Virus record (IMG/VR): IMGVR_UViG_2547132281_000015
Coordinates: 1 to 19,148 of that record
Length of the DNA: 19,148 bases
Source of the DNA: a virus
Lineage: Duplodnaviria; Heunggongvirae; Uroviricota; Caudoviricetes
Strand: one strand, 5' to 3'
The notes beneath the pieces were generated by a model. That model worked only from the letters and a program-made list of their open reading frames with translations. It made no database searches and was not told the origin of the DNA. Positions 1-17,924 of the stretch are shown here, in pieces. The position numbers were made by a program, and so were the translations under genes. Numbering within the stretch: position 1 is the stretch's first letter; the number at the start of each line of letters is the position of its first letter.

Positions 1-376
1 TGGTATGCCGAAAGGGATGCTGAAATTGAGAATGAAAAGCTGCGCCGGGAAGTTGAAGAACTGCGGCAGGCCAGCGAGACAGATCTCCAGCCAGGGACTA
101 TTGAGTACGAACGCCATCGACTTACGCGTGCGCAGGCCGACGCACAGGAGCTGAAAAATGCCAGAGACTCCGCTGAAGTGGTGGAAACCGCATTCTGTAC
201 TTTCGTGCTGTCGCGGATCGCAGGTGAAATTGCCAGTATTCTCGACGGGATCCCCCTGTCGGTGCAGCGGCGTTTTCCGGAACTGGAAAACCGACATGTT
301 GATTTCCTGAAACGGGATATCATCAAAGCCATGAACAAAGCAGCCGCGCTGGATGAACTGATACCGGGGTTGCTGA

Positions 377-402
<26 letters not shown>
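1..402 (+). CDS. nu1: Terminase small subunit Nu1, C-terminal fragment (5' end lies outside the window)
   Basis: Frame 1 reads ...EIENEKLRREVEELRQASE...VVETAFCTFVLSRIAGEIASILDGIPLSVQRRFPELENRHVDFLKRDIIKAMNKAAALDELIPGLLSEYIEQSG then TAA at 400-402, matching the lambda Nu1 C-terminus as I recall it. Overlaps the start of A by 26 nt as in lambda. Confidence 0.85.
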
Positions 403-4083
<3,681 letters not shown>

Positions 4084-4103
<20 letters not shown>

Positions 4104-5403
4104 TCTCCCGCATATTGCCAGCATGGCTTTTAATGAGCCGCTGATGCTTGAACCCGCCTATGCGCGGGTTTTCTTTTGTGCGCTTGCAGGCCAGCTTGGG
4201 ATCAGTCGCCTGACGGATGCAGTATCCGGCGATAGCCTGACTGCCGGAGAGGCACCCGCGGCGCTGGCGTTATCCGGTGATGATGACGGACCACGACAGG
4301 CCCGCAGTTATCAGGTCATGAACGGCATCGCCGTGCTGCCGGTGTCCGGTACGCTGGTCAGCCGGACGCGGGCGCTGCAGCCGTATTCGGGAATGACCGG
4401 TTACAACGGCATTATCGCTCGTCTGCAACAGGCTGCCAGCGATCCGATGGTGGACGGCATTCTGCTCGATATGGACACACCGGGCGGGATGGTGGCGGGA
4501 GCATTTGACTGTGCTGACATCATCGCCCGTGTGCGTGACATAAAGCCGGTATGGGCGCTGGCCAACGACATGAACTGCAGTGCAGGTCAGCTGCTTGCCA
4601 GCGCCGCCTCCCGGCGTCTGGTCACGCAGACCGCCCGGACAGGCTCCATCGGCGTCATGATGGCTCACAGTAATTACGGCGCTGCGCTGGAGAAACAGGG
4701 CGTGGAAATCACGCTGATTTACAGCGGCAGCCATAAGGTGGATGGCAACCCCTACAGCCATCTACCGGGTGATGTCCGGGAGACACTGCAGTCCCGGATG
4801 GATGCAACCCGCCGGATGTTTGCGCAGAAGGTGTCGGCATATACCGGCCTGTCCGTGCAGGCTGTGCTGGATACCGAGGCTGCAATGTACAGCGGTCAGG
4901 AGGCCATTGATGCCGGACTGGCTGATGAACTTGTCAACAGCACCGATGCGATCACCGTTATGCGTGATGCACTGGATGCACGTAAATCCCGTCTCTCAGG
5001 AGGGCGAATGACCAAAGAGACTCAATCAACAACTGTTTCAGCCACTGCTTCGCAGGCTGACGTTACTGACGTGGTGCAAGCGACGGAGGGCGAAAACGCC
5101 AGCGCGGCGCAGCCGGACGTGAACGCGCAGATCACCGCTGCGGTTGCGGCAGAAAACAGCCGCATTATGGGGATCCTCAACTGTGAGGAAGCTCACGGAC
5201 GCGAAGAACAGGCACGTGTGCTGGCCGAAACCCCCGGTATGACCGTGGAAACGGCCCGCCGCATTCTGGCAGCTGCACCACAGAGTGCACAGGCGCGCAG
5301 TGACACTGCGCTGGATCGTCTGATGCAGGGGGCACCGGCACCACTGGCTGCAGGTAACCCGGCATCTGATGCCGTTAACGATTTGCTGAACACACCAGTG
5401 TAA
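4084..5403 (+). CDS. C: Head maturation protease / minor capsid protein gpC (439 aa, S49 family), GTG start
   Basis: The ORF track extends to 3949, but the lambda-like start is the GTG at 4084 (VTAELRNLPHIASMAFNEPLMLEP...), giving 439 aa and a 20-nt overlap with the end of B, as in lambda. Confidence 0.85.
4798..5403 (+). CDS. nu3: Scaffolding protein Nu3, nested in-frame in the 3' third of C (201 aa)
   Basis: In-frame internal ATG at 4798 (MDATRRMFAQKVSAYTG...), same offset from the C stop as the lambda Nu3/C nested pair. Nested initiation is inferred by analogy, not proven by sequence. Confidence 0.7.
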   Translation: MDATRRMFAQKVSAYTGLSVQAVLDTEAAMYSGQEAIDAGLADELVNSTDAITVMRDALDARKSRLSGGRMTKETQSTTVSATASQADVTDVVQATEGENASAAQPDVNAQITAAVAAENSRIMGILNCEEAHGREEQARVLAETPGMTVETARRILAAAPQSAQARSDTALDRLMQGAPAPLAAGNPASDAVNDLLNTPV

Positions 5404-5412
5404 GGGATGTTT

Positions 5413-5745
5413 ATGACGAGCAAAGAAACCTTTACCCATTACCAGCCGCTGGGCAACAGTGACCCGGCACATACGGCAACCGCGCCCGGCGGATTGAGTG
5501 CGAAAGCGCCTGCAATGACCCCGCTGATGCTGGACACCTCCACCCGTAAGCTGGTTGCGTGGGATGGCACCACCGACGGTACTGCCGTTGGCATTCTGGC
5601 GGTTGATGCTGACCAGACCAGCACCACGCTGACGTTCTACAAGTCCGGCACGTTCCGTTATGAGGATGTGCTCTGGCCGGAGGCTGCCAGCGACGAGACG
5701 AAAAAACGGACCGCGTTTGCCGGAACGGCAATCAGCATCGTTTAA
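5413..5745 (+). CDS. D: Capsid decoration protein gpD (110 aa)
   Basis: [110 protein letters not shown], recognised as lambda gpD. Confidence 0.95.
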
Positions 5746-5762
5746 CCTTACCCTTCATCACT

Positions 5763-5787
5763 AAAGGCCGCCTGTGCGGCTTTTTTT
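5763..5787 (+). terminator. Hairpin plus T-run between D and E (partial intrinsic terminator or RNA-stability element)
   Basis: GCCGC (5767-5771), loop CTGT, GCGGC (5776-5780), extended by A/T pairs, followed by TTTTTTT at 5781-5787. Confidence 0.45.
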
Positions 5788-5800
5788 ACGGGATTTTTTT

Positions 5801-6826
5801 ATGTCGATGTACACAACCGCCCAGCTGCTGGCGGCAAATGAGCAGAAATTTAAGTTTGATCCGCTGTTTCTGCGTCTCTTTTTCCGTGAGAGCTATCCCT
5901 TCACCACGGAGAAAGTCTATCTCTCACAAATTCCGGGACTGGTAAACATGGCGCTGTACGTTTCGCCGATTGTTTCCGGTGAGGTTATCCGTTCCCGTGG
6001 CGGCTCCACCTCTGAATTTACGCCGGGATATGTCAAACCCAAGCATGAGGTGAATCCGCAGATGACCCTGCGTCGCCTGCCGGATGAAGATCCGCAGAAT
6101 CTGGCGGACCCGGCTTACCGCCGCCGTCGCATCATCATGCAGAACATGCGAGACGAAGAGCTGGCCATTGCTCAGGTCGAAGAGATGCAGGCAGTTTCTG
6201 CTGTGCTTAAGGGCAAATACACCATGACCGGTGAAGCCTTCGATCCGGTTGAGGTGGATATGGGCCGCAGTGCGGCGAACAACATCACACAGTCCGGCGG
6301 TACGGAGTGGAGCAAGCGTGACAAGTCCACGTATGACCCGACCGACGATATCGAAGCCTACGCGCTGAACGCCAGCGGTGTGGTGAATATCATCGTGTTT
6401 GATCCGAAAGGCTGGGCGCTGTTCCGTTCCTTCAAAGCCGTCAGGGAGAAGCTGGATACCCGTCGCGGCTCTAATTCCGAGCTGGAGACAGCGGTAAAAG
6501 ACCTGGGCGAAGCGGTGTCCTATAAGGGGATGTATGGCGATACGGCGATCGTCGTGTATTCCGGACAGTACGTGGAAAACGACGTCAAAAAGAACTTCCT
6601 GCCGGACAACACGATGGTGCTGGGGAACACTCAGGCACGCGGTCTGCGCACCTATGGCTGCATTCAGGATGCGGACGCACAGCGCGAAGGTATTAACGCC
6701 TCTGCCCGCTACCCGAAAAACTGGGTGACCACCGGCGATCCGGCGCGTGAGTTCACCATGATTCAGTCAGCACCGCTGATGCTGCTGGCTGACCCTGATG
6801 CGTTCGTGTCCGTACAACTGGCGTAA
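5801..6826 (+). CDS. E: Major capsid protein gpE (341 aa)
   Basis: ORF from the ATG at 5801 (MSMYTTAQLLAANEQKFKFDPLFLRLFFRESYPFTTEKVYLSQIPGLVNMALYVSP...), recognised as lambda gpE. The upstream in-frame extension from 5774 is rejected. Confidence 0.95.
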   Translation: MSMYTTAQLLAANEQKFKFDPLFLRLFFRESYPFTTEKVYLSQIPGLVNMALYVSPIVSGEVIRSRGGSTSEFTPGYVKPKHEVNPQMTLRRLPDEDPQNLADPAYRRRRIIMQNMRDEELAIAQVEEMQAVSAVLKGKYTMTGEAFDPVEVDMGRSAANNITQSGGTEWSKRDKSTYDPTDDIEAYALNASGVVNIIVFDPKGWALFRSFKAVREKLDTRRGSNSELETAVKDLGEAVSYKGMYGDTAIVVYSGQYVENDVKKNFLPDNTMVLGNTQARGLRTYGCIQDADAQREGINASARYPKNWVTTGDPAREFTMIQSAPLMLLADPDAFVSVQLA

Positions 6827-6867
6827 TCATGGCCCTTCGGGGCCATTTTCTCTCTGTGGAGGAGTCC

Positions 6868-7263
6868 ATGACGAAAGATGAACTGATTGCCCGTCTTCAG
6901 GTGCTGGGTGAGCAACTGAACCGTGATGTCAGCCTGACGGGGACGAAAGAAGAACTGGTGCTCCGTGTGGCAGAGCTGGAAGAGGAGCTTGATGACACGG
7001 ATGACGCTGCCGGTCAGGACACATCTGTCAGCCCGGAAAATGCGCTGACCGGACATGAAAATGAGGTGGTATCAGCGCAGCCGGATACCGTGATTGATAC
7101 GGCTGCTCTGGTCACGGTCGTGGCACTGGTGACGCTGCATACTGATGCACTTCACGCCACGCGGGATGAGCCTGTGGCATTTGTGCTGCCGGGAACGGCG
7201 TTCCGTGTCTCTGCCGGTGTGGCAGCTGAAATGACAGAGCGCGGCCTGGCCAGAATGCAATAA
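6868..7263 (+). CDS. FI: DNA-packaging protein FI (131 aa)
   Basis: MTKDELIARLQVLGEQLNRDVSLTGTKEELVLRVAELEEELDDTDD... with GGAGG 4 nt upstream of the ATG at 6868; matches lambda gpFI with a few substitutions relative to my recollection. Confidence 0.85.
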   Translation: MTKDELIARLQVLGEQLNRDVSLTGTKEELVLRVAELEEELDDTDDAAGQDTSVSPENALTGHENEVVSAQPDTVIDTAALVTVVALVTLHTDALHATRDEPVAFVLPGTAFRVSAGVAAEMTERGLARMQ

Positions 7264-7274
7264 CGGGAGGCGCT

Positions 7275-7628
7275 GTGGCTGATTTCGATAACCTGTTCGA
7301 TGCTGCCATTGCCCGCGCCGATGAAACGATACGCGGGTACATGGGAACGTCAGCCACCATGACATCCGGTGAGCAGTCCGGTGCTGTGATACGTGGTGTT
7401 TTTGATGACCCTGAAAATATCAGCTATGCCGGACAGGGCGTGCGCGTTGAAGGCTCCAGCCCGTCCCTGTTTGTCCGGACTGATGATGTGCGGCAGCTGC
7501 GGCGCGGCGACACGCTGACCATCGGTGAGGAAAACTTCTGGATAGACCGGATTTCGCCAGATGATGGCGGAAGCTGTCATCTCTGGCTTGGGCGGGGCGT
7601 ACCGCCTGCCGTTAACCGTCGCCGCTGA
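7275..7628 (+). CDS. FII: Head-tail connector protein FII (117 aa), GTG start
   Basis: 117-aa ORF (V/M)ADFDNLFDAAIARADETIRGYMGTSATMTSGEQSGAVIRGVFDDPENISYAGQGVRVEGSSPSLFVRTDDVRQLRRGDTLTIGEENFWIDRISPDDGGSCHLWLGRGVPPAVNRRR, recognised as lambda gpFII. Confidence 0.85.
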   Translation: MADFDNLFDAAIARADETIRGYMGTSATMTSGEQSGAVIRGVFDDPENISYAGQGVRVEGSSPSLFVRTDDVRQLRRGDTLTIGEENFWIDRISPDDGGSCHLWLGRGVPPAVNRRR

Positions 7629-8403
7629 AAGGGGGATGTATGGCCATAAAAGGTCTTGAGCAGGCCGTTGAAAACCTCAGCCGTATCAGCAGAACGGCGG
7701 TGCCCGGTGCCGCCGCAATGGCCATTAGTGCAGTTGTTACATAACTGAGTTTATGTAAGTCTTCATCATTCAGACGAGTGAGGGCTGGGACAGTAGCCAT
7801 GATGGCAGCCTCCTTGATCGGTGAAATACTTCCACCACCGGAAACGCCAATTTCGCTGGTGGTGAACTGAACGGGGTTGGCGTAACCGGTGATCAAGGAA
7901 ACCGGCGCATCTTTCGATGCCCCCGCCCAGCCCACCATAACTTTGATGTGAGCAAATGCGGACGATAAAAAAGACGCTGGCGCGTCATATATCGCCTTGA
8001 TCAATTCCAGGACGCCAATCCCGGCACCCGCTTTATAAGGTGCCTGAACAGTGTAACGTCCCGGAATGGCAGAATCAATGTGCTGGTGGTCCTTCACACT
8101 CAACAAAATCACGCCTGAATTTCCACAAAGGACTAAAGCACTCATGCGGGTAGTCTTTGCGAAGATAGATAACGCGCTGTGTTTCTGGTTCCCAACGAAT
8201 AACATGGACATAAAGCCCTCTTCCGTCACGAAACCAGCGGTTAAGTTCCCGCACAACTCGCCCCCCACAGTCAGGTAAAGTTCTCTGTGGTTACTTACAG
8301 CCAGGTGATTTGGTAATCTGCATTCATGCCGTAACAACAGGTGTTCAGCGACACTGACCACCAGCTGTTGCGACAAACGGTTATTTGCCGTTAAACTGTT
8401 CAT
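7612..8403 (-). CDS. Hypothetical early-right protein, 3' end disrupted at the rearrangement junction (native part about 7730-8403)
   Basis: 263-aa ORF whose ATG (8401-8403) overlaps the TGA of the upstream CII-like gene (ATGA coupling). Its last ~40 codons are read through the antisense of the lambda Z/FII sequence, so the true C-terminus is missing. No recognisable motif. Confidence 0.45.
   Translation of the reverse strand: MNSLTANNRLSQQLVVSVAEHLLLRHECRLPNHLAVSNHRELYLTVGGELCGNLTAGFVTEEGFMSMLFVGNQKHSALSIFAKTTRMSALVLCGNSGVILLSVKDHQHIDSAIPGRYTVQAPYKAGAGIGVLELIKAIYDAPASFLSSAFAHIKVMVGWAGASKDAPVSLITGYANPVQFTTSEIGVSGGGSISPIKEAAIMATVPALTRLNDEDLHKLSYVTTALMAIAAAPGTAVLLIRLRFSTACSRPFMAIHPPFSGDG
7640..7747 (+). 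pseudogene. Z: Tail gene Z remnant: first ~29 codons lambda-like, then divergence and stop after 35 codons
   Basis: MAIKGLEQAVENLSRISRTAVPGAAAMAI matches the lambda gpZ N-terminus (192 aa in lambda); the frame then reads SAVVTN and stops at TGA 7745-7747. No U, V, G, T, H... tail genes follow. Confidence 0.75.
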
Positions 8404-8963
8404 GCGTTAGTTTCTCCACAGACACAAAACGCCACGACGCCCGGAGCTGCACACTCGCGGGCGTCACTCTTTTCTGGAGCGCAAAAGATTTTGTAGACCA
8501 GTGCTGCATGCTCTTGGAGCTTCGAAATTGACAGATACAACTCATCATTAATTGCTGTCTGCTCGTGTGGCTCCACGACCCCATCTTCGATTGCCGAACG
8601 AATCTGCTTTGAGTAATTCCCGATCTGTTCGATGACTTCCAGCAGGCGCTGGTTTATATCGGCGTTCTCTACTTCCTCAATTTCAGGAAGCGATACGAAC
8701 ACCCCACCAGCAGACTGTGCGACAGCATCCGCAATGTAGTGAGTGCCAGCCGCGCGCTGTAAAACCATTGCCCATCCCAGCGGGAAAATCTGATCGCCAT
8801 CGGCACGAAGGCGGTTAAATAATGCGTTCTCTGTTACATCCAGCCAGTCAGCTGCTTCAGCGTAACCACCCGGCAACGCTGCGATAGTTTTTCTGACAGC
8901 TTTCACGTACCACTCAGGCTGTTTTTCTACTTTCCAGTGATACTTACCCACGGTTAGCCTCAT
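8400..8963 (-). CDS. CII-like early regulator (YdaT / phage CII family), tentative
   Basis: 187-aa ORF immediately downstream of the cro-like gene on the same strand, the position CII/YdaT occupies in Rac- and CP-933P-type prophages. Assignment rests on position, size and vague recollection of the family. Start uncertain (poor SD at 8963; alternative GTG four codons in). Confidence 0.5.
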   Translation of the reverse strand: MRLTVGKYHWKVEKQPEWYVKAVRKTIAALPGGYAEAADWLDVTENALFNRLRADGDQIFPLGWAMVLQRAAGTHYIADAVAQSAGGVFVSLPEIEEVENADINQRLLEVIEQIGNYSKQIRSAIEDGVVEPHEQTAINDELYLSISKLQEHAALVYKIFCAPEKSDARECAAPGVVAFCVCGETNA

Positions 8964-8994
8964 CGTTCTGTGGTTAAAAATTGAAGGTGTTCTG

Positions 8995-9195
8995 TTAATC
9001 TTTCGGATAGATATCCGGTCTTAAGTCAGATTTCGTAATTGCACCTGACGTGCATTGCTCAAGTTTTTTCGCCAGCACAAAACTGGCTTTTTTATAACCA
9101 TTGAAAACCAGCCGTAAGTAGCCAGGTGTTGAGCCAACTTTTCCGGCCAACTCGCCCTGCTGTTCTTTGGTTAAAGAGTCCCAATACGCTTTCAT
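8995..9195 (-). CDS. Cro-like HTH regulator (YdaS/Cro family, 66 aa)
   Basis: MKAYWDSLTKEQQGELAGKVGSTPGYLRLVFNGYKKASFVLAKKLEQCTSGAITKSDLRPDIYPKD; GGAGG about 10 nt upstream of the ATG at 9195; divergent from the cI-like gene. The longer 167-aa ORF to 9498 is rejected. Confidence 0.7.
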   Translation of the reverse strand: MKAYWDSLTKEQQGELAGKVGSTPGYLRLVFNGYKKASFVLAKKLEQCTSGAITKSDLRPDIYPKD

Positions 9196-9285
9196 ACAAT
9201 ATGTACCTCCGATATACATATTACATGATTGAAATGAACCTTCAAGATACTTGTACCTTATCGGTACAAAGGTTTTAATTTCGTT
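9196..9285. promoter_or_regulatory. Divergent cro/cI control region (pR-like and pRM-like promoters with operator-like palindromes)
   Basis: Operator-like 19-mers ATGTACCTCCGATATACAT (9201-9219) and TTGTACCTTATCGGTACAA (9251-9269, 7-bp perfect inverted arms). Candidate pRM: -35 TTGTAC 9251-9256, 17-nt spacer, -10 TTTAAT 9274-9279, ending 6 nt before the cI ATG (possibly leaderless). Candidate pR on the minus strand: -10 TAATAT at 9218-9223, -35 TTGAAG at 9240-9245. Confidence 0.5.
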
Positions 9286-9960
9286 ATGAAAACAATCCAT
9301 GACATCCGGCGGTCTAACGCCAGAAAACTGAGAGATGGTGTTGGCGGGAATTCTTCCTTTGCCACCATGATTGATCGCGAGCCAACCCAGACCAGCAGGT
9401 TTATGGGAGATGGTGCTACTAAAAATATCGGTGACAGCATGGCGCGGCACATCGAAAAATGTTTCGACCTGCCTGTCGGATGGCTTGATCAAGAACACCA
9501 GACCACGAACATCACAAAAAAACCTGATGTTTCAATCACTAACAAACAAATAACGTTAGTCCCTGTCATATCATGGGTACAGGCCGGAGCATGGAAAGAA
9601 GTTGGCTATTCTGAGGTTGATTTGAGCACAGCAGAAACTTACCCCTGCCCTGTACCCTGTGGCGAAATGACTTATATCTTGCGGGTGATTGGTGATTCAA
9701 TGATTGATGAGTACCGCCCTGGAGACATGATTTTTGTTGATCCCGAAGTCCCTGCCTGCCACGGTGACGACGTTATTGCATTGATGCACGATACAGGCGA
9801 AACCACCTTCAAGCGATTGATAGAAGATGGAACACAGCGTTATCTCAAAGCATTAAACCCAAACTGGCCTGAGCCTTACATTAAGATTAACGGTAATTGC
9901 TCTATAATTGGTACAGTGATTTTCTCGGGAAAACCAAGAAGATACACAATAAAGGCCTAA
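9286..9960 (+). CDS. cI-like prophage repressor with C-terminal LexA/S24 autopeptidase domain (224 aa)
   Basis: C-terminal half carries the S24 signature: candidate Ala-Gly cleavage site (VQAGAW), Ser nucleophile in GDSM, Lys in TFKRL. Divergent from the cro-like gene. Confidence 0.85.
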   Translation: MKTIHDIRRSNARKLRDGVGGNSSFATMIDREPTQTSRFMGDGATKNIGDSMARHIEKCFDLPVGWLDQEHQTTNITKKPDVSITNKQITLVPVISWVQAGAWKEVGYSEVDLSTAETYPCPVPCGEMTYILRVIGDSMIDEYRPGDMIFVDPEVPACHGDDVIALMHDTGETTFKRLIEDGTQRYLKALNPNWPEPYIKINGNCSIIGTVIFSGKPRRYTIKA

Positions 9961-9971
9961 TCAATATTTAT

Positions 9972-9996
9972 GAACCTGCTTCGGCAGGTTTTTTTA
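9972..9996 (+). terminator. Intrinsic terminator of the cI-like gene
   Basis: GAACCTGC (9972-9979), loop TTCG, GCAGGTT (9984-9990), then a run of T to 9996; begins 12 nt after the cI stop. Confidence 0.75.
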
Positions 9997-9999
9997 TAC

Positions 10000-10027
10000 T
10001 TGACAATGTACCCATGAGATACATAAT
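10000..10027 (+). promoter_or_regulatory. pL-like early-left promoter with embedded operator-like site
   Basis: -35 TTGACA (10000-10005), 16-nt spacer, -10 CATAAT (10022-10027). The spacer and -10 contain ATGTACCCATGAGATACAT (10006-10024), matching the 9201-9219 motif at 15 of 19 positions. Confidence 0.55.
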
Positions 10028-10445
10028 GTATCCAAAAGAAACATGAGGCAGGCAAAATTCAAACAAAATTTGGTTGTAACACGGCGTATGGCACATGCGT
10101 CGTTAGCGGTCTGGGGACGTTAAAGGGGACAATCCACTTCTTGCTCGGGCAAACAAACCAGGTAGCCGGAATGTGCAAGTCAATGATGATGCTGATAAGA
10201 CGCCTAACCAGCGTGGCGATCCGGTTTGACGCCTGGGAAGAGACCAGGGTGCAACGATGAGGGCATTTATAGAGCCGCGACAAAGTGTGGTGCCGTAACT
10301 GGCTAAGTGCTCTCAGCGTTGTGGTAATCCGCGAAATGGCGCGGCGGTAAGTATGGCGGGGTTACTCTTTCCCCGTTGAGGACACCGGATTGTCAGGTTG
10401 ACCATACGCCTGAGTGACAACCCCACCACAACAGCCACTGCTTTG

Positions 10446-10491
10446 GCGGTACCAGTTTGTACACTTGCTTCCGGCTGGTACCGCTCTTTTT
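10446..10491 (+). terminator. Intrinsic terminator (or nut/boxA-like element) at the end of the early-left leader
   Basis: Perfect 10-bp inverted repeat GCGGTACCAG (10446-10455) / CTGGTACCGC (10475-10484) followed by TCTTTTTAC. The CGCTCTTTTTACAA stretch also resembles boxA (CGCTCTTA / GCTCTTTAACAA). Confidence 0.55.
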
Positions 10492-10628
10492 ACAAAATAG
10501 AGAAGAGCATCACCGGACGACGGGCTCATAACCCAATCCATCCGGGCGGCTGCCACCGCAGGTGTTCTTCTCTGTTTTGTGGAGAAACCAACCGACCTTG
10601 CAGGGTCGATATGATGAGGAGCAGCAAA

Positions 10629-10991
10629 ATGGCTAGCGAACGCAGTACTGATGTGCAGGCATTTATCGGGGAGCTGGACGGCGGCGTATTTGAAACCAAA
10701 ATCGGCGCAGTTCTCAGTGAAGTCGCTTCCGGTGTGATGAACACGAAAACCAAAGGTAAGGTCTCACTCAACCTGGAAATCGAACCATTTGATGAGAACC
10801 GTGTGAAAATCAAACACAAACTCTCATATGTTCGCCCGACTAACCGCGGGAAAATTTCCGAAGAAGACACCACCGAAACGCTGATGTATGTCAATCGCGG
10901 TGGTCGCCTGACTATTCTGCAGGAAGACCAGGGACAATTACTGACTCTTGCCGGTGAACCTGACGGAAAACTACGCGCAGCAGGTCATTAA
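10629..10991 (+). CDS. yfdP: YfdP-like early-left protein (120 aa)
   Basis: ATG at 10629 preceded by GAGGAG (10616-10621) gives 120 aa, the size of E. coli K-12 CPS-53 YfdP, and it is followed by YfdQ/R/S/T-like genes in K-12 order. The upstream in-frame extension from 10398 is treated as leader. Confidence 0.6.
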   Translation: MASERSTDVQAFIGELDGGVFETKIGAVLSEVASGVMNTKTKGKVSLNLEIEPFDENRVKIKHKLSYVRPTNRGKISEEDTTETLMYVNRGGRLTILQEDQGQLLTLAGEPDGKLRAAGH

Positions 10992-11056
10992 TATCGTTCT
11001 TAATTAACTGATTATTTATCTCATCACTGAATATCTTTATATAGTGAGGACTTATT

Positions 11057-11881
11057 ATGTCTCAGAACTTAGACGCAACCGCAATTAATCAAATCCATGC
11101 CCTTATTTCTGCTCAGGGTGTTAATGAAATTATCAGTAATATTGGTGCCGATGCTGTGGCATTGCCTGAGAATTTCCGCATTCATGATCTGGAAAAATTT
11201 AATTTAAATCGCTTCCGTTTCCGTGGTGCGCTTTCCACTGCCAGCATCGATGACTTTACCCGTTATTCTAAAGATCTTGCAGATGAAGGCACCCGCTGCT
11301 TTATCGATGCTGATAATATGCGTGCCGTCAGTGTACTTAACCTGGGTACTATTGATGAACCAGGTCACGCAGATAACACCGCCACTCTCAAACTGAAAAA
11401 GACAGCACCGTTCTCTGCCCTGTTGTCTGTTAACGGCGAGCGTAACTCCCAGAAGTCACTGGCAGAATGGATTGAAGACTGGGCCGACTACCTTGTGGGC
11501 TTTGATGCTAATGGTGACGCTATTCAGGCAACAAAAGCGGCTGCGGCAGTCCGTAAAATCACGATTGAAGCAAACCAGACCGCTGATTTTGAAGATAATG
11601 ACTTCAGCGGCAAACGCTCCCTGATGGAGTCTGTCGAAGCGAAGACCAAAGACATTATGCCAGTGGCATTTGAATTTAAATGCGTTCCGTTTGAAGGTCT
11701 GAAAGAACGTCCGTTTAAATTACGCCTCAGCATTATCACTGGCGATCGTCCTGTACTGGTTCTGCGCATTATTCAGCTGGAGGCGGTGCAGGAAGAAATG
11801 GCTAACGAATTTCGTGATCTGCTTGTTGAGAAATTCAAGGACAGCAAAGTAGAAACCTTTATTGGTACTTTCACCGCCTGA
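11057..11881 (+). CDS. yfdQ: YfdQ-like protein (DUF2303 family, 274 aa)
   Basis: 274-aa ORF with GAGGA SD, same length as K-12 YfdQ and the same position in a yfdP-Q-R-S-T array. Family assignment from recollection. Confidence 0.65.
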
Positions 11882-11893
11882 TTTCATTACTGC

Positions 11894-11915
11894 AAATGCC
11901 CCTGCGGGGGCATTT
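11894..11915 (+). terminator. GC-rich hairpin between yfdQ-like and yfdR-like (possible attenuator)
   Basis: AAATGCCCC (11894-11902), loop TGCG, GGGGCATTT (11907-11915); no clean T-run afterwards. Confidence 0.35.
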
Positions 11916-12008
11916 ATGGAAACGTAATTTACTCAATAATCGCCGGATGGTGAGGGATTCTTTTTACCAGAATTCAGCGCGGTGCAGCGCATATACGTGG
12001 AGAACAAA

Positions 12009-12545
12009 ATGTCATTTATCAAAACTTTTTCTGGGAAGCATTTTTATTATGACAGGATAAATAAAGACGACATCGATATTAACGATATCGCGGTTTCCCT
12101 TTCAAATATCTGTCGCTTTGCCGGTCATCTTTCGCACTTCTACAGCGTCGCCCAACATGCGGTTCTTTGCAGCCAGCTGGTGCCGCAGGAATTTGCTTTT
12201 GAAGCGTTAATGCATGATGCAACAGAAGCGTATTGCCAGGACATTCCCGCACCACTGAAACGCCTTCTTCCTGACTATAAACGGATGGAAGAAAAAATAG
12301 ACGCCGTAATCCGTGAGAAATACGGGTTACCCCCGGTTATGAGTACACCCGTGAAATATGCCGATCTCATCATGCTGGCAACCGAACGCCGCGATCTCGG
12401 GCTTGATGATGGCTCTTTCTGGCCTGTACTGGAAGGCATCCCGGCAACAGAGATGTTCAACGTGATTCCACTGGCACCGGGCCATGCCTACGGGATGTTT
12501 ATGGAACGTTTTAACGATTTATCGGAGTTACGCAAATGCGCATGA
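12009..12545 (+). CDS. yfdR: HD-domain phosphohydrolase, YfdR-like 5'-deoxynucleotidase (178 aa)
   Basis: ATG at 12009 with GGAGA SD gives 178 aa (the K-12 YfdR length). HD signature: His in AGHLSHFYSVAQHAV and HD in LMHDATEAY. Stop overlaps the next gene by 10 nt. Confidence 0.75.
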   Translation: MSFIKTFSGKHFYYDRINKDDIDINDIAVSLSNICRFAGHLSHFYSVAQHAVLCSQLVPQEFAFEALMHDATEAYCQDIPAPLKRLLPDYKRMEEKIDAVIREKYGLPPVMSTPVKYADLIMLATERRDLGLDDGSFWPVLEGIPATEMFNVIPLAPGHAYGMFMERFNDLSELRKCA

Positions 12546-12898
12546 ATGTTTTCGAAATGGAAGGGTTTCTTCGCGGGAAATGTGTACCGCGAGATCTGAA
12601 AGTGAACGAAACAAATGCTGAGTACCTGGTACGTAAATTCGACGCGCTTGAAGCTAAATGTGCGGCACTGGAAAACAAAATAATACCAGTGTCAACTGAA
12701 CTGCCACCAGCAAATGAAAGTGTTCTGTTATTTGATGCTAATGGAGAAGGCTGGCTGATTGGCTGGCGTTCTCTCTGGTACACCTGGGGACAAAAAGAAA
12801 CCGGAGAATGGCAGTGGACATTTCAGGTCGGGGACCTTGAAAACTTCAATATCACTCACTGGGCAGTAATGCCCAAAGCGCCGGAGGCTGGAGCATAA
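12536..12898 (+). CDS. yfdS: YfdS-like protein (120 aa)
   Basis: 120-aa ORF, the K-12 YfdS length; start overlaps the yfdR-like stop, stop overlaps the next start (TAATG). Confidence 0.6.
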   Translation: MRMNVFEMEGFLRGKCVPRDLKVNETNAEYLVRKFDALEAKCAALENKIIPVSTELPPANESVLLFDANGEGWLIGWRSLWYTWGQKETGEWQWTFQVGDLENFNITHWAVMPKAPEAGA

Positions 12899-13518
12899 TG
12901 ACCACATTTACCAATAAAGAACTGATTAAAGAAATCAAAGAACGAATCAGCAGCCTAGAGGTTCGAGACGATATTGAGCGCCGTGCTTATGAAATTGCTC
13001 TGGCATCGCTGGAAGAGGAGCCGGTGGCATGGCTGCATTCAGACAATGGCTTAGGTATTCCGGCAATAACCAGGAGCAAAAACATTGCTGACAGTTGGTT
13101 ATCAATGGGCTGGTATGTTCAGCCGCTATATATAGCCAAGCCAGTACTGGTGGTGCCAGATGCTCGTCCGTCTTTAAATAATGGCATAGTCGGTTTTGAT
13201 GAAGGCTGGAACGCCTGCCGCGCCACCATGCTTCATGGTGCCAAACCTGTAAGCCAGACTTACAAGTTGAACAAGCTGTCGGGCAACTCTCCGGTAACTC
13301 AGGATGGTTGGATAAGCTGTAGTGAGCGAATGCCGAACGATAAACAGTATGTTTGGTGTTGGGGTAAGTCTTACGGCTGGACTGAGTGCGATACCTTCGA
13401 AGGGTATTACGATTGGTCGAGAAACAAATGGTGGGCAGTTACTGACGATGGGGAAGAACCGGCATCGAAAGTAACCCACTGGATGCCGCTACCGGAGCCA
13501 CCGCAGGAGGTGAAGTAA
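12898..13518 (+). CDS. YfdT-like protein with C-terminal Trp/Cys-rich DUF551-type region (206 aa)
   Basis: 206-aa ORF translationally coupled at both ends; C-terminus ...DKQYVWCWGKSYGWTECDTFEGYYDWSRNKWWAVTDDGEEPASKVTHWMPLPEPP resembles DUF551 ends. About twice the size of the K-12 yfdT product (101 aa as I recall). Confidence 0.5.
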   Translation: MTTFTNKELIKEIKERISSLEVRDDIERRAYEIALASLEEEPVAWLHSDNGLGIPAITRSKNIADSWLSMGWYVQPLYIAKPVLVVPDARPSLNNGIVGFDEGWNACRATMLHGAKPVSQTYKLNKLSGNSPVTQDGWISCSERMPNDKQYVWCWGKSYGWTECDTFEGYYDWSRNKWWAVTDDGEEPASKVTHWMPLPEPPQEVK

Positions 13519-13712
13519 TGAACAACTTAATGACAACTAAACAAGTCGCCGACTTCTGTGGCGTTTCAGTATCGACCGTTCTTCGCTGGAACAGCGTAAA
13601 CAGGAGAACTGGCCAGAAATACAGGCCTGACTTTCCAGATCCTGATATTAAATCCTGCCCAAATAAATGGGCATCACGCAAGATATACAGGTTTGCTGGA
13701 GTTATTGAGTGA
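13518..13712 (+). CDS. AlpA/Xis-like small HTH protein (candidate excisionase, 64 aa)
   Basis: MNNLMTTKQVADFCGVSVSTVLRWNSVNRRTGQKYRPDFPDPDIKSCPNKWASRKIYRFAGVIE; HTH followed by a basic/aromatic tail, as in AlpA/TorI-type excisionases. Last gene of the early-left operon, on the integrase side. Confidence 0.6.
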   Translation: MNNLMTTKQVADFCGVSVSTVLRWNSVNRRTGQKYRPDFPDPDIKSCPNKWASRKIYRFAGVIE

Positions 13713-13747
13713 TGGGTATTAGCTCATATCAGAACTAATACCCATCA
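13710..13747. terminator. Strong hairpin at the convergence point of the early-left operon and the SIR2 gene (candidate bidirectional terminator)
   Basis: T-GATGGGTATTAG (13710-13722), 12-nt loop, CTAATACCCATC-A (13735-13747): 13-bp perfect stem overlapping the xis-like stop codon. No T-run on either side. Confidence 0.45.
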
Positions 13748-13914
13748 ATGACACAGAGCCAACTACCCACCCTGTGTCAGGGGCTAACTTTTAACACCAT
13801 AATTCACCGCTAGATAAAAACTGTATTGCATTGCACGAGCGGCGCAGCATTATCAGTTAGAGTGTCTTTACCTTGTTAGGCTCCACAGTTCGCACTGTCC
13901 AACGCCTGTCACTT

Positions 13915-16900
13915 TCACACGCTGCGCCTTCGAGAATATTCATTTAATCGCTGATAACGAACATCTTGCTCCAGTTGTGGAGCAGCTTGAACAATTTGAA
14001 GCAAGCATTGCCCCAACTCTCGAGGCCCCCAGTGTTGTTCGGCAATCACGGCATTCAGCAGGGATAGAGCGTCCGCAGGATATCGGCTGCAAATATCTGA
14101 TTCTAGCAAAAGGCGAACGTCGTAGCTAAGGTGTTCGAGCGGTTGCAGCCAGTCCTGCACCACTGCCAAAGCCGCCGGAAATTCACCTCGGGCAGCAATC
14201 ACCATACGAGTCAACGATTCGGATATGCGTGGGGTGGCCAAGTTGCGGGACTTTGGCCAAACCTGTTGCCAAAATGGCTGGACACGATTTTTCCAATACT
14301 CCTCGCGCTGATCGCCCGCACCTTCAAGTGCCTGGTATAACGCCTGCGCGGCTACCTCCAGACCTTCTTGTGGAAGAGCACTAATTGCCGTTCGGAACTC
14401 CTCCACGGTATATCCCTCGGTAGGGCCCAGAGCTGCATAAGTCAGGAAAATAGCGAATTGCTGCCGGTGCTCGCCAAGATCAGAATAGTGATTGGCGCTC
14501 TCCAAAAAATCTGACTTGAAAGCTATCAGCAACGGTTCATACAGGCGTGGCGACCAGAGGAAGCCTTCCCACACAGCTTTTGCTTCGACGGGATTACTCC
14601 AAGCAAACAAGGGCAATAGATACTGTTCGGTCCAAGGTCGATCTACGCGAAAAAATGCGATCAGCCGCGACCCCAGCAACACCCGACCATGGCGGAATAG
14701 CTCTATCTGTACATTACACAATTTGGTGAAAAGTGTTTTCAATTCAACAGGAAGCAAATCATTGTCATTCGGGTTCTGTTTGAACCATAGGGTGATCAGT
14801 GATTGCGTGACATGCCCAATGGGATGATTGATCGCCGTAGAAACAGGATCATAGGTCTCAATTCCGTTTCGAATGGTGCTAGACTCTGGGCTTGTTTCTA
14901 TCATCAGAACCCGACGACAAAGGGCCAGTAGAATCTCCTCGTGGCAGAGGATGGTCTTCGAAGCCTCCTCCATCCACCAAGTGACAGCGTGGGAAATCTC
15001 CTGAAGTACTGCGTCAGGCATGTCAAGCACCAACGGTGCGGCGTACCGCCACGAACGCAAAATCATCCCTGGTTCAGCCCAAGTCTGCAGAGCTTCACGC
15101 CACCGACCAACAGGCCACACATCATCTTGTGATAGTTTACGTAACGCATACAGACTGTGAAAAAAGCGCGTACGGCAAACATCACTCCAAGTGTCCTCAT
15201 AGAAAGGCAGTCTTTCTGGCATAGGCTTTGCGAGCCATTGCACTAATTCCTGCCACTTACGGGGCGCAATGTCGACATCTATACTCTCCTCGAAGCCTGG
15301 ATCACCGGTTCCGCTCATCCAGTGAGAGAATTCATCACGCTCGTTGGTTGCCAGTTGCCATTTTGGGTATGCTGTGGATATTTCCGTCAAACGTGTAGCC
15401 GCAGACTCTCCCAAAACAAGGCCCGCTCCCCTGAGCTTCGCTAGACACAACCAGACGGAATGAGCCACCAAATAATGCCACCTGTCTGCTTCCAAATTAT
15501 CCTCGTACATCTCGCGCGGAGGCCCTGCCAAGATAGCAGTTTCCAGACGCTCTTGTGCAATTCCTGTCAGATGTCGTCCCTGCAAAACAAACAGTCTGAA
15601 TACCTCTCGCCGAGTATCCGTGGCCCACAACCACCATGAACCGTCCTCTAACAACCAATTAACCCACCGCTCAGGTGGTATGCAGTTGTCTTGGCTTGCG
15701 GCAAACAGTGCCAGACGTTTGAAGGTGGGATATGGCAACTCAAACCAATTCTGAGCAATGCGCGAGGCCTGATCGCTGTCTTTGGCTCGAACGGCTAACC
15801 ACGAATCCCGAAGTAATTCAATCAGGCTCACCCAATCGCGGAACCCCCGGTTCTGCCAGTGCGGAGTGATGGACGGCAAATCCCAATGCGAGCGGTCGTG
15901 ACGATCGTCGGACTCTCCCAACTCCCGCAACAAGTCCAGTGCATCACGCAACAACTGCTGAAAATCTTCCAACAGGTATGGCAAGGACGATTTCCATGAC
16001 TCGTCAGCAAGGTCGAACAGGGTTGAACGTACGTAATCAGCAGTCAGCACCAGCTCCCAATCCACCAATTGCTTGATTCGCAAGGGTTCATCAGTGCTGC
16101 TCGAATCGTCTTCACTATAGCGAAACGGCCGCCTCAACATAACCTTGGGAGAAAGCAACCCGCGTAACTCCAAGCGCAATGTAGTCGTCAAGCCTTCATT
16201 CTTTAAGCGGTTTTGCCAACGATACAAATCCAGGTTCTGCAATGGCGATTTCACACGACCACTAAGCAGAAGCCGCCATAAAGTAGACATAGGTGGACCA
16301 GGAATAGCCAGGGGGGAATGCAAGAGAATTTCATCTAACTCAGAAGTCTTACGCTCCCGCATCAGTGCTGCTAAGCGATCTAGTTCGCTCTCAATCAGAA
16401 ACATCCAACGGTCGTGTATTTGTCCGCCGCGTTCAGCAATCCATATGATCAACCTAGGGTCGCCCAGATAACGAACTAGCCAACGGGCTATATGGGACAT
16501 TACGTCATCCCATTTGCTAGCACTGACACATCCAGAAACCAGCGACATCTGCGGGGCCAGCTCATAGGGCGCTGGACGCTGAACCAGACTGAATCGGAGT
16601 TTCGGGTCAATTTCGACATGCGGAGATACACAAAAGCGTGGCAGATCGCTGTATTTAAATCGTTCGTCCGAGAAAGCTTTCAATAACCAATCCAGCGGCG
16701 GTGCAGGATTGAGTTCCGCAAAGCGTTTTGCTGGTAAACCTGATTTATCTGACAAGGCCCACAACATCCGACCAACGAAATCGTCCTGACGAGTGCTGTC
16801 CTGCGGGCGGGCCAGAGCATGTTTGACGACTATAGCCTCTTTGCCCTGTATACCATCTCGATAAGTATCTGCCCAAGCGTGCAACGTTTGATGCAGCACT

Positions 16901-17742
16901 GAATGATCAGTGGAGCCCGCCGGTACGGTGTAAAGGATAGGAGTGACCCCTTTGGCCTCCCACTCGATGGCTTTCCGGTGCTCCTGCCCCGGCTCACACT
17001 CCCCCAGTGCCCATACTTGTGGTGTGACTTCACCGAGCCTCCGATCTGCTGCAAGCGCATCCATCATGTAGCGCAGTACCGGGTCGTTGATGCTGTAGCC
17101 AACGAAGCAGACCACATAGTTACGAAATAACTCACTCACAAAGCGAGCTGCCCAACGCTCAGTGAGATAAGCCAAGCCAAAGTCACCGCTGGTAACAACC
17201 AGACGATTCAGGGCAGTATCATCCGCCTTTTCCGGTAACAGCCCATGCAGGTATACAAGTCCATCCCAGCGGCTGTTTTTTGGAATTGGCAGCATCGGCG
17301 CTACATAGGCCTGAAAAGCCTGGCCTGTACGTTTAGCTGCCACATGAAAGAGACGGTCAAAGTTGGTAGTGACCAATCGAAGGGCACCCTCGCGGCTACG
17401 GGCTAAACGTAACAGCGCCGCCTGAGTATCAATAGCGCCCCTACGACGGAGCTTTGGCTTAAGGGCTTTTTCCAACGCGCGTCGGACGGCTATACGCTGC
17501 CCTGGTAAGCGCCGTTCCAGCAAATCTAATGTGCCGTCAAATTGCCCACGCTCGAAAACCTCACGCTCAATTTCTGAAAGTGTTGTTCCGTTCCTCTGGT
17601 AAATTAGTTCTACCAACCCTTTGAAACCAGGTAAACCAGCAGGGTAGGAAATGCCTGCTCCACAGAAGAACACAACGCGCCCTTCCTCGTGCGCCTGCAA
17701 AAGCTCATCAGGAATATCAGGGCCGTTGGTAATGAATTGCAT
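13915..17742 (-). CDS. SIR2-like (sirtuin/NADase) domain protein, 1275 aa; candidate single-gene anti-phage defence protein (DSR-like)
   Basis: N-terminal ~300 aa carry SIR2-type motifs: FFCGAGISYP (GAG, res 28-30), VTTNFD (Asn127/Asp129), VYLHGLL (His166), VVTSGDFG, FVGYSINDP. GGAGG 9 nt upstream of the ATG at 17742. The remaining ~950 aa is W/L/R-rich with no P-loop. Confidence 0.8.
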   Translation of the reverse strand: MQFITNGPDIPDELLQAHEEGRVVFFCGAGISYPAGLPGFKGLVELIYQRNGTTLSEIEREVFERGQFDGTLDLLERRLPGQRIAVRRALEKALKPKLRRRGAIDTQAALLRLARSREGALRLVTTNFDRLFHVAAKRTGQAFQAYVAPMLPIPKNSRWDGLVYLHGLLPEKADDTALNRLVVTSGDFGLAYLTERWAARFVSELFRNYVVCFVGYSINDPVLRYMMDALAADRRLGEVTPQVWALGECEPGQEHRKAIEWEAKGVTPILYTVPAGSTDHSVLHQTLHAWADTYRDGIQGKEAIVVKHALARPQDSTRQDDFVGRMLWALSDKSGLPAKRFAELNPAPPLDWLLKAFSDERFKYSDLPRFCVSPHVEIDPKLRFSLVQRPAPYELAPQMSLVSGCVSASKWDDVMSHIARWLVRYLGDPRLIIWIAERGGQIHDRWMFLIESELDRLAALMRERKTSELDEILLHSPLAIPGPPMSTLWRLLLSGRVKSPLQNLDLYRWQNRLKNEGLTTTLRLELRGLLSPKVMLRRPFRYSEDDSSSTDEPLRIKQLVDWELVLTADYVRSTLFDLADESWKSSLPYLLEDFQQLLRDALDLLRELGESDDRHDRSHWDLPSITPHWQNRGFRDWVSLIELLRDSWLAVRAKDSDQASRIAQNWFELPYPTFKRLALFAASQDNCIPPERWVNWLLEDGSWWLWATDTRREVFRLFVLQGRHLTGIAQERLETAILAGPPREMYEDNLEADRWHYLVAHSVWLCLAKLRGAGLVLGESAATRLTEISTAYPKWQLATNERDEFSHWMSGTGDPGFEESIDVDIAPRKWQELVQWLAKPMPERLPFYEDTWSDVCRTRFFHSLYALRKLSQDDVWPVGRWREALQTWAEPGMILRSWRYAAPLVLDMPDAVLQEISHAVTWWMEEASKTILCHEEILLALCRRVLMIETSPESSTIRNGIETYDPVSTAINHPIGHVTQSLITLWFKQNPNDNDLLPVELKTLFTKLCNVQIELFRHGRVLLGSRLIAFFRVDRPWTEQYLLPLFAWSNPVEAKAVWEGFLWSPRLYEPLLIAFKSDFLESANHYSDLGEHRQQFAIFLTYAALGPTEGYTVEEFRTAISALPQEGLEVAAQALYQALEGAGDQREEYWKNRVQPFWQQVWPKSRNLATPRISESLTRMVIAARGEFPAALAVVQDWLQPLEHLSYDVRLLLESDICSRYPADALSLLNAVIAEQHWGPRELGQCLLQIVQAAPQLEQDVRYQRLNEYSRRRSV

Positions 17743-17924
17743 TCCTTTTCCTCCTATCCAATGTGCACGTTCATTCGAGTAAATGAAGGCAAGGGGTTAC
17801 ATCTTATTATACCGACCGTGCAAATCCGGCTTCCTAGCAAGCTACTTTACTTGCCAACTCATAATGTCCGAACTCCGAACAAAGCGGACTGCTAGATTTG
17901 ATTGCGTTCTAGCTACGCAAAATA
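17743..17924 (-). promoter_or_regulatory. Integrase-SIR2 intergenic region with candidate own promoter for the SIR2 gene
   Basis: Perfect -10 TATAAT on the minus strand (plus-strand 17806-17811), about 64 nt upstream of the SIR2 ATG; no good -35 at 17-nt spacing. Confidence 0.3.

Follow-up and report, generated by a model that had tools for sequence, protein, structure and literature searches.

The window analyzed here is the 19,148-bp stretch of IMG/VR record IMGVR_UViG_2547132281_000015 (positions 1 to 19,148; Caudoviricetes), in which a cI-like repressor gene and a divergent cro-like gene flank a short control region. Five palindromic sites that lie in this region and at a promoter behind cI are, in all likelihood, the operators at which CI and Cro work the lysis-lysogeny switch of a lambdoid prophage of the SfV type. 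A first-pass annotation of the window had proposed a lambda-like layout in which one repressor recognizes paired right and left operators (OR and OL), and this proposal was supported at the sequence level by tests of the genes, of the confinement of the motif, of its conservation, and of its covariation with the repressor. Divergent genes, a repressor with an S24 peptidase domain, repeated candidate operators at OR, and the same motif at the leftward promoter (P_L), which together mark a lambdoid switch, were all found.

The window was searched with the pattern WTGTAYN7RTACAW, and shuffled versions of the window (n = 200) served as controls. Exactly three matches were returned (at 9201, 9251, and 10006), compared to 0.03 expected, and 0 of 200 shuffles reached three. 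When up to two mismatches were allowed, the only matches remaining beyond the two control regions were at 13115 and 17864, which is within chance expectation. A weight matrix was then built from ten sites of Hafnia, Edwardsiella, and Pseudomonas phages only, so that the window sites were not in the training set. This matrix ranked 9251, 10006, 9201, 9234, and 10026 highest in the window; the next best score was 7.4 bits, and the maximum in shuffled windows was 9.8 +/- 2.3 bits. The five sites, none of which is assigned a strand, are as follows.

9201 to 9219: O1, candidate OR1-like operator, ATGTACCTCCGATATACAT, exact pattern match, 20.8 bits.
9234 to 9252: O-mid, candidate OR2-like, weaker operator, ATGAACCTTCAAGATACTT, 2 mismatches, 13.2 bits, fourth in the window.
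9251 to 9269: O2, candidate operator, OR3-like by position, TTGTACCTTATCGGTACAA, exact pattern match, 22.8 bits, the window maximum.
10006 to 10024: OL1, candidate operator, ATGTACCCATGAGATACAT, exact pattern match, 21.8 bits.
10026 to 10044: OL2, weaker candidate operator, ATGTATCCAAAAGAAACAT, 1 mismatch, 13.0 bits, fifth in the window.

O2 consists of perfect 7-bp inverted arms (TTGTACC/GGTACAA) around its center, and ATGTACCTCCGATATACAT and ATGTACCCATGAGATACAT carry the same base at 15 of 19 positions. The coordinates, sequences, 7-bp arms, and 15-of-19 agreement given in the first-pass annotation were exact to the base. Its count of three copies held for the exact pattern matches and rose to five once the weaker sites at 9234-9252 and 10026-10044 were included; these two, which were all that the motif search for further copies added, lie inside the same two control regions. 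Likewise, the 19-bp motif that it described was present in all three places, but the outermost base of the 19-mer was conserved solely where it forms part of a promoter hexamer, and the predicted operator core is 17 bp, TGTACC-N5-GGTACA. In OR, the sites are centered on 9210, 9243, and 9260, at distances of 33 and 17 bp, and O-mid shares 2 bp with O2; the OL centers, 10015 and 10035, are separated by 20 bp. In the window, and likewise in the complete genome of phage Ayreon (44.7 kb), the motif was confined to the cro-cI gap and to the promoter past the cI terminator, and the four best matrix matches in Ayreon were its OR and OL sites. The immunity region of the window is 98 to 99% identical to those of Ayreon, 2H10, cdtI, and Stx2c-converting phages, and it is about 96 to 97% identical to those of SfV and SfIV over the 78% of its length that could be aligned.

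The placement of the sites relative to the predicted transcription signals is consistent with repression of three promoters. The cro-like gene (start at 9195, minus strand) and cI (start at 9286, plus strand) diverge from a gap of 90 bp, and the genes and signals concerned are listed below.

8995 to 9195, minus strand: cro-like gene, 66 amino acids, with the ATG at 9195 and GGAGG 6 nucleotides (nt) upstream.
9218 to 9245, minus strand: predicted P_R (cro promoter), read from the sequence.
9251 to 9279, plus strand: predicted P_RM (cI promoter), proposed by analogy with lambda P_RM.
9286 to 9960, plus strand: cI repressor gene, 224 amino acids, matching Pfam Peptidase_S24 (1.5e-26) and PHROG 4 (7.5e-49).
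9972 to 9998, plus strand: cI intrinsic terminator, with an 8-bp stem (GAACCTGC/GCAGGTTT) and a T-run; the terminator scan placed the hairpin and T-run at 9972-9991, just past the cI stop.
10000 to 10027, plus strand: P_L-like promoter, TTGACA-16-CATAAT, from a consensus scan (11/12), also annotated in Ayreon.

Predicted P_R has a -35 hexamer TTGAAG (complement of 9240-9245), a 16-nt spacer, and a -10 hexamer TAATAT (complement of 9218-9223). It matches the consensus at 8 of 12 positions, below the promoter-scan threshold, and its form, TTGnnG followed at 16 or 17 nt by the second hexamer, was kept in 28 of 31 distinct relatives. O1 spans the final 2 bp of the P_R -10 hexamer, the predicted start of cro transcription, and the Shine-Dalgarno sequence of cro; O-mid spans the P_R -35 hexamer, with its center 43 bp upstream of the cI ATG. 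For P_RM, a -35 hexamer TTGTAC (9251-9256), a 17-nt spacer, and a -10 hexamer TTTAAT (9274-9279) would place the start of transcription on the A of the cI ATG or on a neighboring base. The sequence nnnAAT stands 6 to 7 nt ahead of the cI ATG in 30 of the 31 relatives, and T..AAT is invariant in an alignment of the cro-cI region, whereas a Shine-Dalgarno-like motif 4 to 9 nt upstream of cI was found in none of the 31. Since the -10 hexamer sits so close to the ATG and the relatives carry no Shine-Dalgarno sequence there, the cI mRNA is probably leaderless. O2 spans the -35 hexamer and spacer of predicted P_RM and would therefore act as the shut-off site for cI. Behind cI, the terminator is conserved in Hafnia phage yong2, and the promoter TTGACA-16-CATAAT that the first-pass annotation had placed after it was recovered by the scan. 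OL1 fills the spacer of this promoter plus the first 3 bp of its -10 hexamer, and OL2, 20 bp further on, spans the final 2 bp of the -10 hexamer and the predicted start site. The sequence thus bears out the earlier placement of the motif at the cro start and -10 region, at the -35 hexamer and spacer of cI, and at the spacer and -10 hexamer of P_L.

The same palindromes occupy the same places in phages with a related repressor. Over the first 71 to 95 residues, CI is 73% identical to the repressor of Hafnia phage yong2, 62% to that of Edwardsiella phage EPP-1, 55 to 59% to those of Pseudomonas aeruginosa phages, including CF3a and LESphi3, and 55% to that of a Vibrio phage. In the Hafnia, Edwardsiella, and Pseudomonas phages, the palindromes of the cro-cI gap have invariant arms and differing centers, with O2 read as TTGTACC-TTATC-GGTACAA, as the variants with -AACGC- or -AATTT- at the center, or as CTGTACA-TTTCT-GGTACAG. 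As in the window, the promoter behind cI in the Hafnia and Edwardsiella phages reads TTGACA-ATGTACC-N5-G[GA]TACAT-A-ATGTAC. In the Pseudomonas phages, the C-terminal domain of CI and the neighboring genes (Ant, BrnT) differ, but the N-terminal domain, a homologous Cro, and the operators are shared, so that the N-terminal domain is what constantly accompanies the operators. The Vibrio phage (Va_PF430-3_p42) has weaker sites (12 to 15 bits) at equal spacing and, as a marginal case, was not used as evidence. A viral-contig scan with CI gave only relatives of at least 99% identity, which are uninformative for footprinting, and a protein search with the CI DNA-binding domain alone gave only fragments. 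A genome scan with the CI domain alignment, with one genome per species, gave 27 true loci in Escherichia, Atlantibacter, Leclercia, Pantoea, Enterobacter, Pseudocitrobacter, Klebsiella, Phytobacter, Trabulsiella, Kluyvera, Limnobaculum, Entomohabitans, Erwinia, Proteus, Edwardsiella, Rosenbergiella, Salinicola, Halomonas, and Pseudomonas.

The strong sites hold their positions relative to cI in the 31 distinct relatives with the same CI DNA-binding domain and a Cro homologue, which represent about 20 genera. Measured from the cI ATG, all 27 genomic relatives (27 of 27) and 5 phages have an O1-type site at -85 to -88, and every relative has an O2-type site at -35 to -38. The two strong palindromes of OR are exactly 50 bp apart, with the weak third site 33 bp from one and overlapping the other by 2 bp, and this geometry varies by no more than about 1 bp among loci as distant as those of Escherichia, Pseudomonas, and Halomonas. 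Of the 27 genomic relatives, 21 have a middle site of at least 10 bits at -51 to -54, often a better one than that of the window (e.g., ATGAACCTACAAGGTACTT, at 16.6 bits). All 27 genomic loci carry one or two sites in a downstream promoter led by TTGAC(A/G/T), and TTGAC[A/G/T] runs directly into ATGTACC in almost every relative, those from Pseudomonas, Halomonas, and Salinicola among them. In enterobacterial relatives, the OL1-type site is at +703 to +747 relative to the start of cI; in Pseudomonas, Halomonas, and Salinicola, it comes after inserted genes and so farther downstream. Most enterobacterial relatives have an OL2-type site of 11 to 18 bits 20 bp past OL1; in the Pseudomonas, Halomonas, and Salinicola clade, two P_L sites stand about 31 to 36 bp apart, an echo of the 33-bp spacing between O1 and the middle site. 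Outside the OR and OL regions of these loci, no hit of at least 10 bits was found in approximately 140 kb. Among distinct sequences, the arms of O2 hold 1.2 to 2.0 bits of information per position and the five central positions 0.2 to 0.6 bits; the arms of O1 are invariant among the aligned relatives.

Such conservation might reflect only promoter and translation signals (-35, -10, and Shine-Dalgarno) together with recent common ancestry. Indeed, the arms overlap the P_RM -35 hexamer and the P_R and P_L -10 hexamers, and the center of O1 contains CCTCC, the cro Shine-Dalgarno sequence. However, these signals would leave unexplained why an invariant GGTACA stands, in symmetry, 5 bp from TGTACC in three promoter contexts, with the same palindrome lying in a spacer at OL1, over a start site at O1, and over a -35 hexamer at O2. 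Moreover, flanks and centers have diverged freely in hosts as distant as Pseudomonas and Halomonas, and a matrix trained elsewhere selects just these sites. An explanation by signals and ancestry is therefore highly improbable.

The half-site also changes with the predicted recognition helix of CI, as the operator reading predicts. CI residues 33 to 40 are PTQTSRFM, of which T34, Q35, S37, and R38 are invariant among relatives with the TGTACC operator, and the TQxSR helix was always paired with the TGTACC half-site. Relatives with other helices carry other repeats: TTTATC-type repeats in H-19B (helix ...SPSQLTQVSG), TTTAGC-N5-GCTAAA in OR and OL alike in Klebsiella phage Chronis (helix ...SPAALSQLIG), and ATTACC-N5-GGTAAT, twice, 51 bp apart, in metagenomic locus L121 (helix ...QASLVSRLLS). 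Locus L120 also carries the TTTAGC half-site. No TGTAC motif was found in H-19B, Chronis, or L121, and OR and OL share a half-site in the other-helix relatives wherever both were examined. The sample is small and the comparison qualitative, but this covariation is the behavior expected if helix 33-40 reads the half-site.

The two proteins encoded on either side of the gap fit these roles. CI has a helical DNA-binding domain (residues 1 to 71), an Ala100-Gly101 linker, and a C-terminal S24 peptidase domain with Ser138 and Lys176. The C-terminal domain resembles lambda CI in sequence (1.8e-9) and in fold (Foldseek, 6.5e-9 to 2hnf; also 8gmu and 3bdn). Residues 98 to 101 are VQAG, and Q99, A100, S138, and K176 are nearly invariant among relatives. 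The AlphaFold2 (AF2) model of CI has a mean predicted local distance difference test (pLDDT) score of 80.6, with N-terminal helices at residues 4-19, 22-28, 33-40, and 50-59 and a pLDDT of about 85 to 93 for this four-helix domain. The N-terminal domain (residues 1 to 75, window 9286-9510) matched no Pfam family even at E values of up to 10, and in precomputed annotation full-length CI homologues carry only PF00717; full-length CI gave 591 clusters at E <= 1e-10. The assignment of a helix-turn-helix (HTH) fold to the N terminus follows from the AF2 model, from PHROG 12107/5736, and from a weak match to PDB entry 5D50. The CI DNA-binding domain appears to be a widespread HTH-like domain for which there is no curated model. 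The SfV cI is 99% identical to that of the window, and the CI of 434 only about 32% identical. The Cro-like protein matches PHROG 35, "transcriptional repressor," at 3e-15, is below threshold for the Pfam models YdaS_toxin (25.1 bits, cutoff of 30) and HTH_3 (16.9 bits, cutoff of 23), and weakly matches the PDB Cro proteins 8co2/8c7k.

We considered the possibility that the palindromes are bound by Cro only, or by CI only, and that the other protein uses different, unrecognized sequences. CI and Cro are equally constant partners of the motif, with a Cro homologue in the matching position in 33 of 33 related loci examined, and no similarity between the CI DNA-binding domain and Cro was detectable; both observations would allow such a division. 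Yet CI and Cro share operators in the studied lambdoid switches, those of lambda, 434, and P22, and no second repeated motif was found in the 90-bp gap, which is nearly filled by three sites and two promoters. The motif also lies on P_L, which a prophage repressor must silence, and the half-site changes along with the CI recognition helix. A switch in which only one of the proteins reads the motif is thus improbable. Both proteins probably bind the motif, since Cro accompanies it just as constantly as CI does.

It is barely credible that the sites belong instead to a host regulator such as LexA, or that O2 is a terminator hairpin. The LexA box has the consensus CTGT-N8-ACAG, a 16-bp palindrome, and the Pseudomonas versions of O2 (CTGTAC...GTACAG) do contain CTGT and ACAG. 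The LexA assignment was rejected, as the sites read TGT-N13-ACA and not CTGT-N8-ACAG. The Pseudomonas phages, moreover, hold separate CTGTATATACAG elements just downstream of cI, and the motif goes with the phage CI domain in hosts that differ in their LexA boxes. The terminator scan listed 9251-9269 as a hairpin followed by AGGTTTTAAT. This candidate was also rejected: the stem has 3 G-C pairs, the tail AGGTTTTAAT is interrupted, and the element lies upstream of cI and not at the end of a gene, while its sister palindromes lack a T-run. The listing is a by-product of O2 being a palindrome.

If the palindromes are the CI/Cro operators, the switch may work as follows. A CI dimer would recognize TGTACC-N5-GGTACA, probably via helix 33-40. 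In the lysogen, CI at O1 and the weaker middle site would block leftward transcription from P_R, and CI at OL1 and OL2 (10006-10044) would block the strong P_L past the cI terminator. Occupation of O2 by excess CI or by Cro would shut off cI at its weak promoter, so that CI would autoregulate via the middle site and O2. In lambda, CI bound at OR2 activates P_RM from a position of about -43, and positive autoregulation is plausible here as well because the middle site is likewise at -43. Cro, acting on the same sites, would shut off cI and later damp early transcription. Upon SOS induction, activated RecA would trigger self-cleavage of CI at Ala100-Gly101 by the Ser138/Lys176 dyad; this would part the DNA-binding domain from the dimerization domain, derepress P_R and P_L, and induce the prophage. 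We infer, in this scheme, the binding of CI, the site first filled by each protein, the start sites, activation from the middle site, and cooperativity.

Several observations weigh against the operator reading or limit its reach. In the Ayreon genome, two unrelated matches also score 13 bits, so that 13 bits alone is not significant genome-wide for either weak site; the score of O-mid by itself is at the whole-genome chance level, and the argument for it rests on position and conservation. OL2 is missing or reduced to a half-site in five relatives (L098, L101, L107, L109, and L110). The conserved arms double as promoter parts (TTG of the P_RM -35 hexamer, AT of the P_R -10 hexamer, and CAT of the P_L -10 hexamer), and the center of O1 holds the cro ribosome-binding signal; part of the conservation is thus due to something else. 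O2, the best palindrome, lies on the cI promoter; were CI to bind it most tightly, the order of occupancy known from lambda would not hold. Since the spacings of 33, 17, and 20 bp are unlike those of lambda, cooperativity and activation are not simply transferable, and since CI and Cro accompany the motif in every locus, the sequence by itself does not assign the binder. Finally, a literature search, which did not extend to the SfV genome paper, returned no binding or expression data and no operator study for the SfV-type repressor.

The comparison with lambda gave a mixed picture. As in lambda, cI and cro diverge around a short control region, three partly symmetric OR sites lie over P_R and P_RM, and the motif recurs at a P_L downstream of cI that is transcribed in the cI direction. 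Like the lambda system, too, are the 17-bp operator core, a CI with an HTH N terminus, an Ala-Gly linker, and an S24 C terminus, a probably leaderless cI mRNA (the lambda P_RM transcript is leaderless), and an OR2-like site centered at about -43 from the cI start. Unlike lambda, the half-site is TGTACC, no Pfam HTH model matches the N-terminal domain of CI, and the best palindrome lies on the cI promoter instead of on P_R. The operators of lambda are spaced 23 to 24 bp apart, whereas the centers here are 33, 17, and 20 bp apart and the middle site and O2 have 2 bp in common. At OL, which is only about 0.8 kb from OR, there are two sites instead of three. A lambda-type geometry, with three sites per region at about 23 to 24 bp, was thus not found; this mismatch concerns the likeness to the working of lambda and not the identity of the sites as operators. 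The window also differs from lambda in its CII-like protein, which is of the CP76 type, and in that no N homologue is recognized, as reported for SfV and SfIV (PMC3851460).

It is conceivable, although in our view rather unlikely, that the OR geometry encodes a switch logic unlike that of lambda. The middle site and O2 would then be mutually exclusive, and pairs of CI dimers would cooperate across three helical turns, a distance suggested by the recurrence of an approximately 33-bp spacing at the P_L of Pseudomonas, Halomonas, and Salinicola. The site of highest quality would serve solely to shut off the leaderless promoter of cI, perhaps with the aid of a loop of only 0.8 kb between OR and OL, and the sites would be read by an HTH subfamily without a Pfam model.

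Other known switches are related to that of the window to differing degrees. SfV has essentially the same module, with an identical O1 and an O2 that differs at one central base. It differs in an extra orf33 insert in the P_L leader and in having replication genes to the left of the Ash-type gene. In 434 and P22, each CI or C2 recognition helix is likewise paired with its own symmetric operator, which is reused at OR and OL, but the sequences, half-sites, and spacings are different. The only solved structure with detectable similarity to the CI N-terminal domain is Rep of Salmonella phage SPC32H (PDB 5D50). This similarity is weak (residues 1 to 76, E = 0.0018; Foldseek, 7.5e-4), and Rep is inactivated by an antirepressor rather than, or besides, by self-cleavage.

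Part of this arrangement had been annotated previously. In the SfV GenBank record U82619.2, positions 26377..26445 are labeled "putative operator region" and correspond exactly to window positions 9201-9269, from the first base of the O1 palindrome to the final base of O2. This label indicates that the OR pair was noticed more than 20 years ago; the SfV immunity region (U82619.2) is reportedly credited to Allison et al. 2002, J Bacteriol 184:1974. The terminator after cI is annotated in the SfV record, and both the terminator and the promoter after cI are annotated in the Ayreon record. The OL sites and the middle site carry no annotation in the GenBank records examined, including those of SfV and Ayreon, and the SfV record leaves the P_L promoter unannotated as well. 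The cI and cro genes of SfIV are identical to those of SfV, and no N, cII, or cIII was recognized in either phage (PMC3851460).

Several neighboring features of the window were also noted. The gene next to cro (window 8400-8963, minus strand) encodes a CII-like activator of the CP76 type (Phage_CP76, 1.2e-14; PHROG 101, 7.5e-73); SfV and SfIV are stated to lack cII (PMC3851460). Downstream of cro and this gene lies an Ash-family open reading frame (ORF) (7612-8403, minus strand), whose homologue in SfV and Ayreon is annotated "immunity region." Within it, Rfam models matched a C4 antisense RNA (7855-7942, minus strand, 82 bits) and an isrK RNA (7967-8043, minus strand, 64 bits), which suggests that the CI/Cro switch is accompanied by a second layer of immunity, based on RNA and of the P1/P7 c4 type. 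The last approximately 38 codons of this ORF derive from the other segment of a junction between two phage segments at about 7726-7727. Positions 1-7727 carry lambda-like packaging and head genes on the plus strand, 99% identical to those of phiSTEC1575-Stx2k and others, and the early region from 7726 onward is of the SfV/Stx2c type. The window lacks the replication genes found after the Ash gene in SfV and Ayreon, as well as the late-regulation and lysis genes seen there in Ayreon. The junction was found in 0 of 5,426 complete E. coli genomes; it could mean that the prophage is rearranged or defective, that prophages lie in tandem, or that the assembly joined two separate pieces.

The P_L transcript would run for about 600 nt (window 10028-10628) without a convincing ORF before the first gene at 10629. 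Its leader has a strong hairpin and U-run at about 10446-10492, a putative terminator that P_L transcription would have to pass, and a fold z-score of -2.3; the 3' 200 nt are conserved in relatives, and the 5' 400 nt, where SfV has its orf33 insert, are variable. Searched against Rfam, the leader matched no family and gave only subthreshold chance hits, and no N-like antiterminator was recognized. In the Pseudomonas phages CF3a (L086 2793-2904) and LESphi3 (L087 2757-2869), two copies of CTGTATATACAG lie just downstream of cI and precede a gene pair that is annotated in LESphi3 as encoding a ribonuclease toxin, BrnT, together with a transcriptional repressor; only past this insert do the P_L operators of the CI type follow. 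Between the early-left genes and the integrase, the window encodes a full-length DSR1 defense sirtuin of 1,275 amino acids (13915-17742, minus strand; PADLOC, 2,734 bits over 1-1275; Pfam SIR2_2). The Dsr1 gene is predicted anti-phage defense cargo of the prophage; Ayreon has a different gene, of 729 amino acids, at this position.

The switch described here is an ordinary lambdoid one that had already been annotated in part in SfV. It adds one more worked example of the lambda paradigm, brings no new principle, and will not surprise the specialist. Nevertheless, the consensus TGTACC-N5-GGTACA and the site map give a base for the design of reporter and binding experiments and for annotating this module across about 20 more genera. 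The immunity type occurs in the Stx2c-converting phages of E. coli O157, in cdtI, the cytolethal-distending-toxin phage, and in the serotype-converting Shigella phages SfV and SfIV. Its carriage by such phages implies that the repressor and its operators would set the timing of toxin and serotype gene induction and the mutual immunity of the phages, and the consensus and map may allow homoimmunity among Stx2c, cdtI, and SfV-type prophages to be predicted from sequence.

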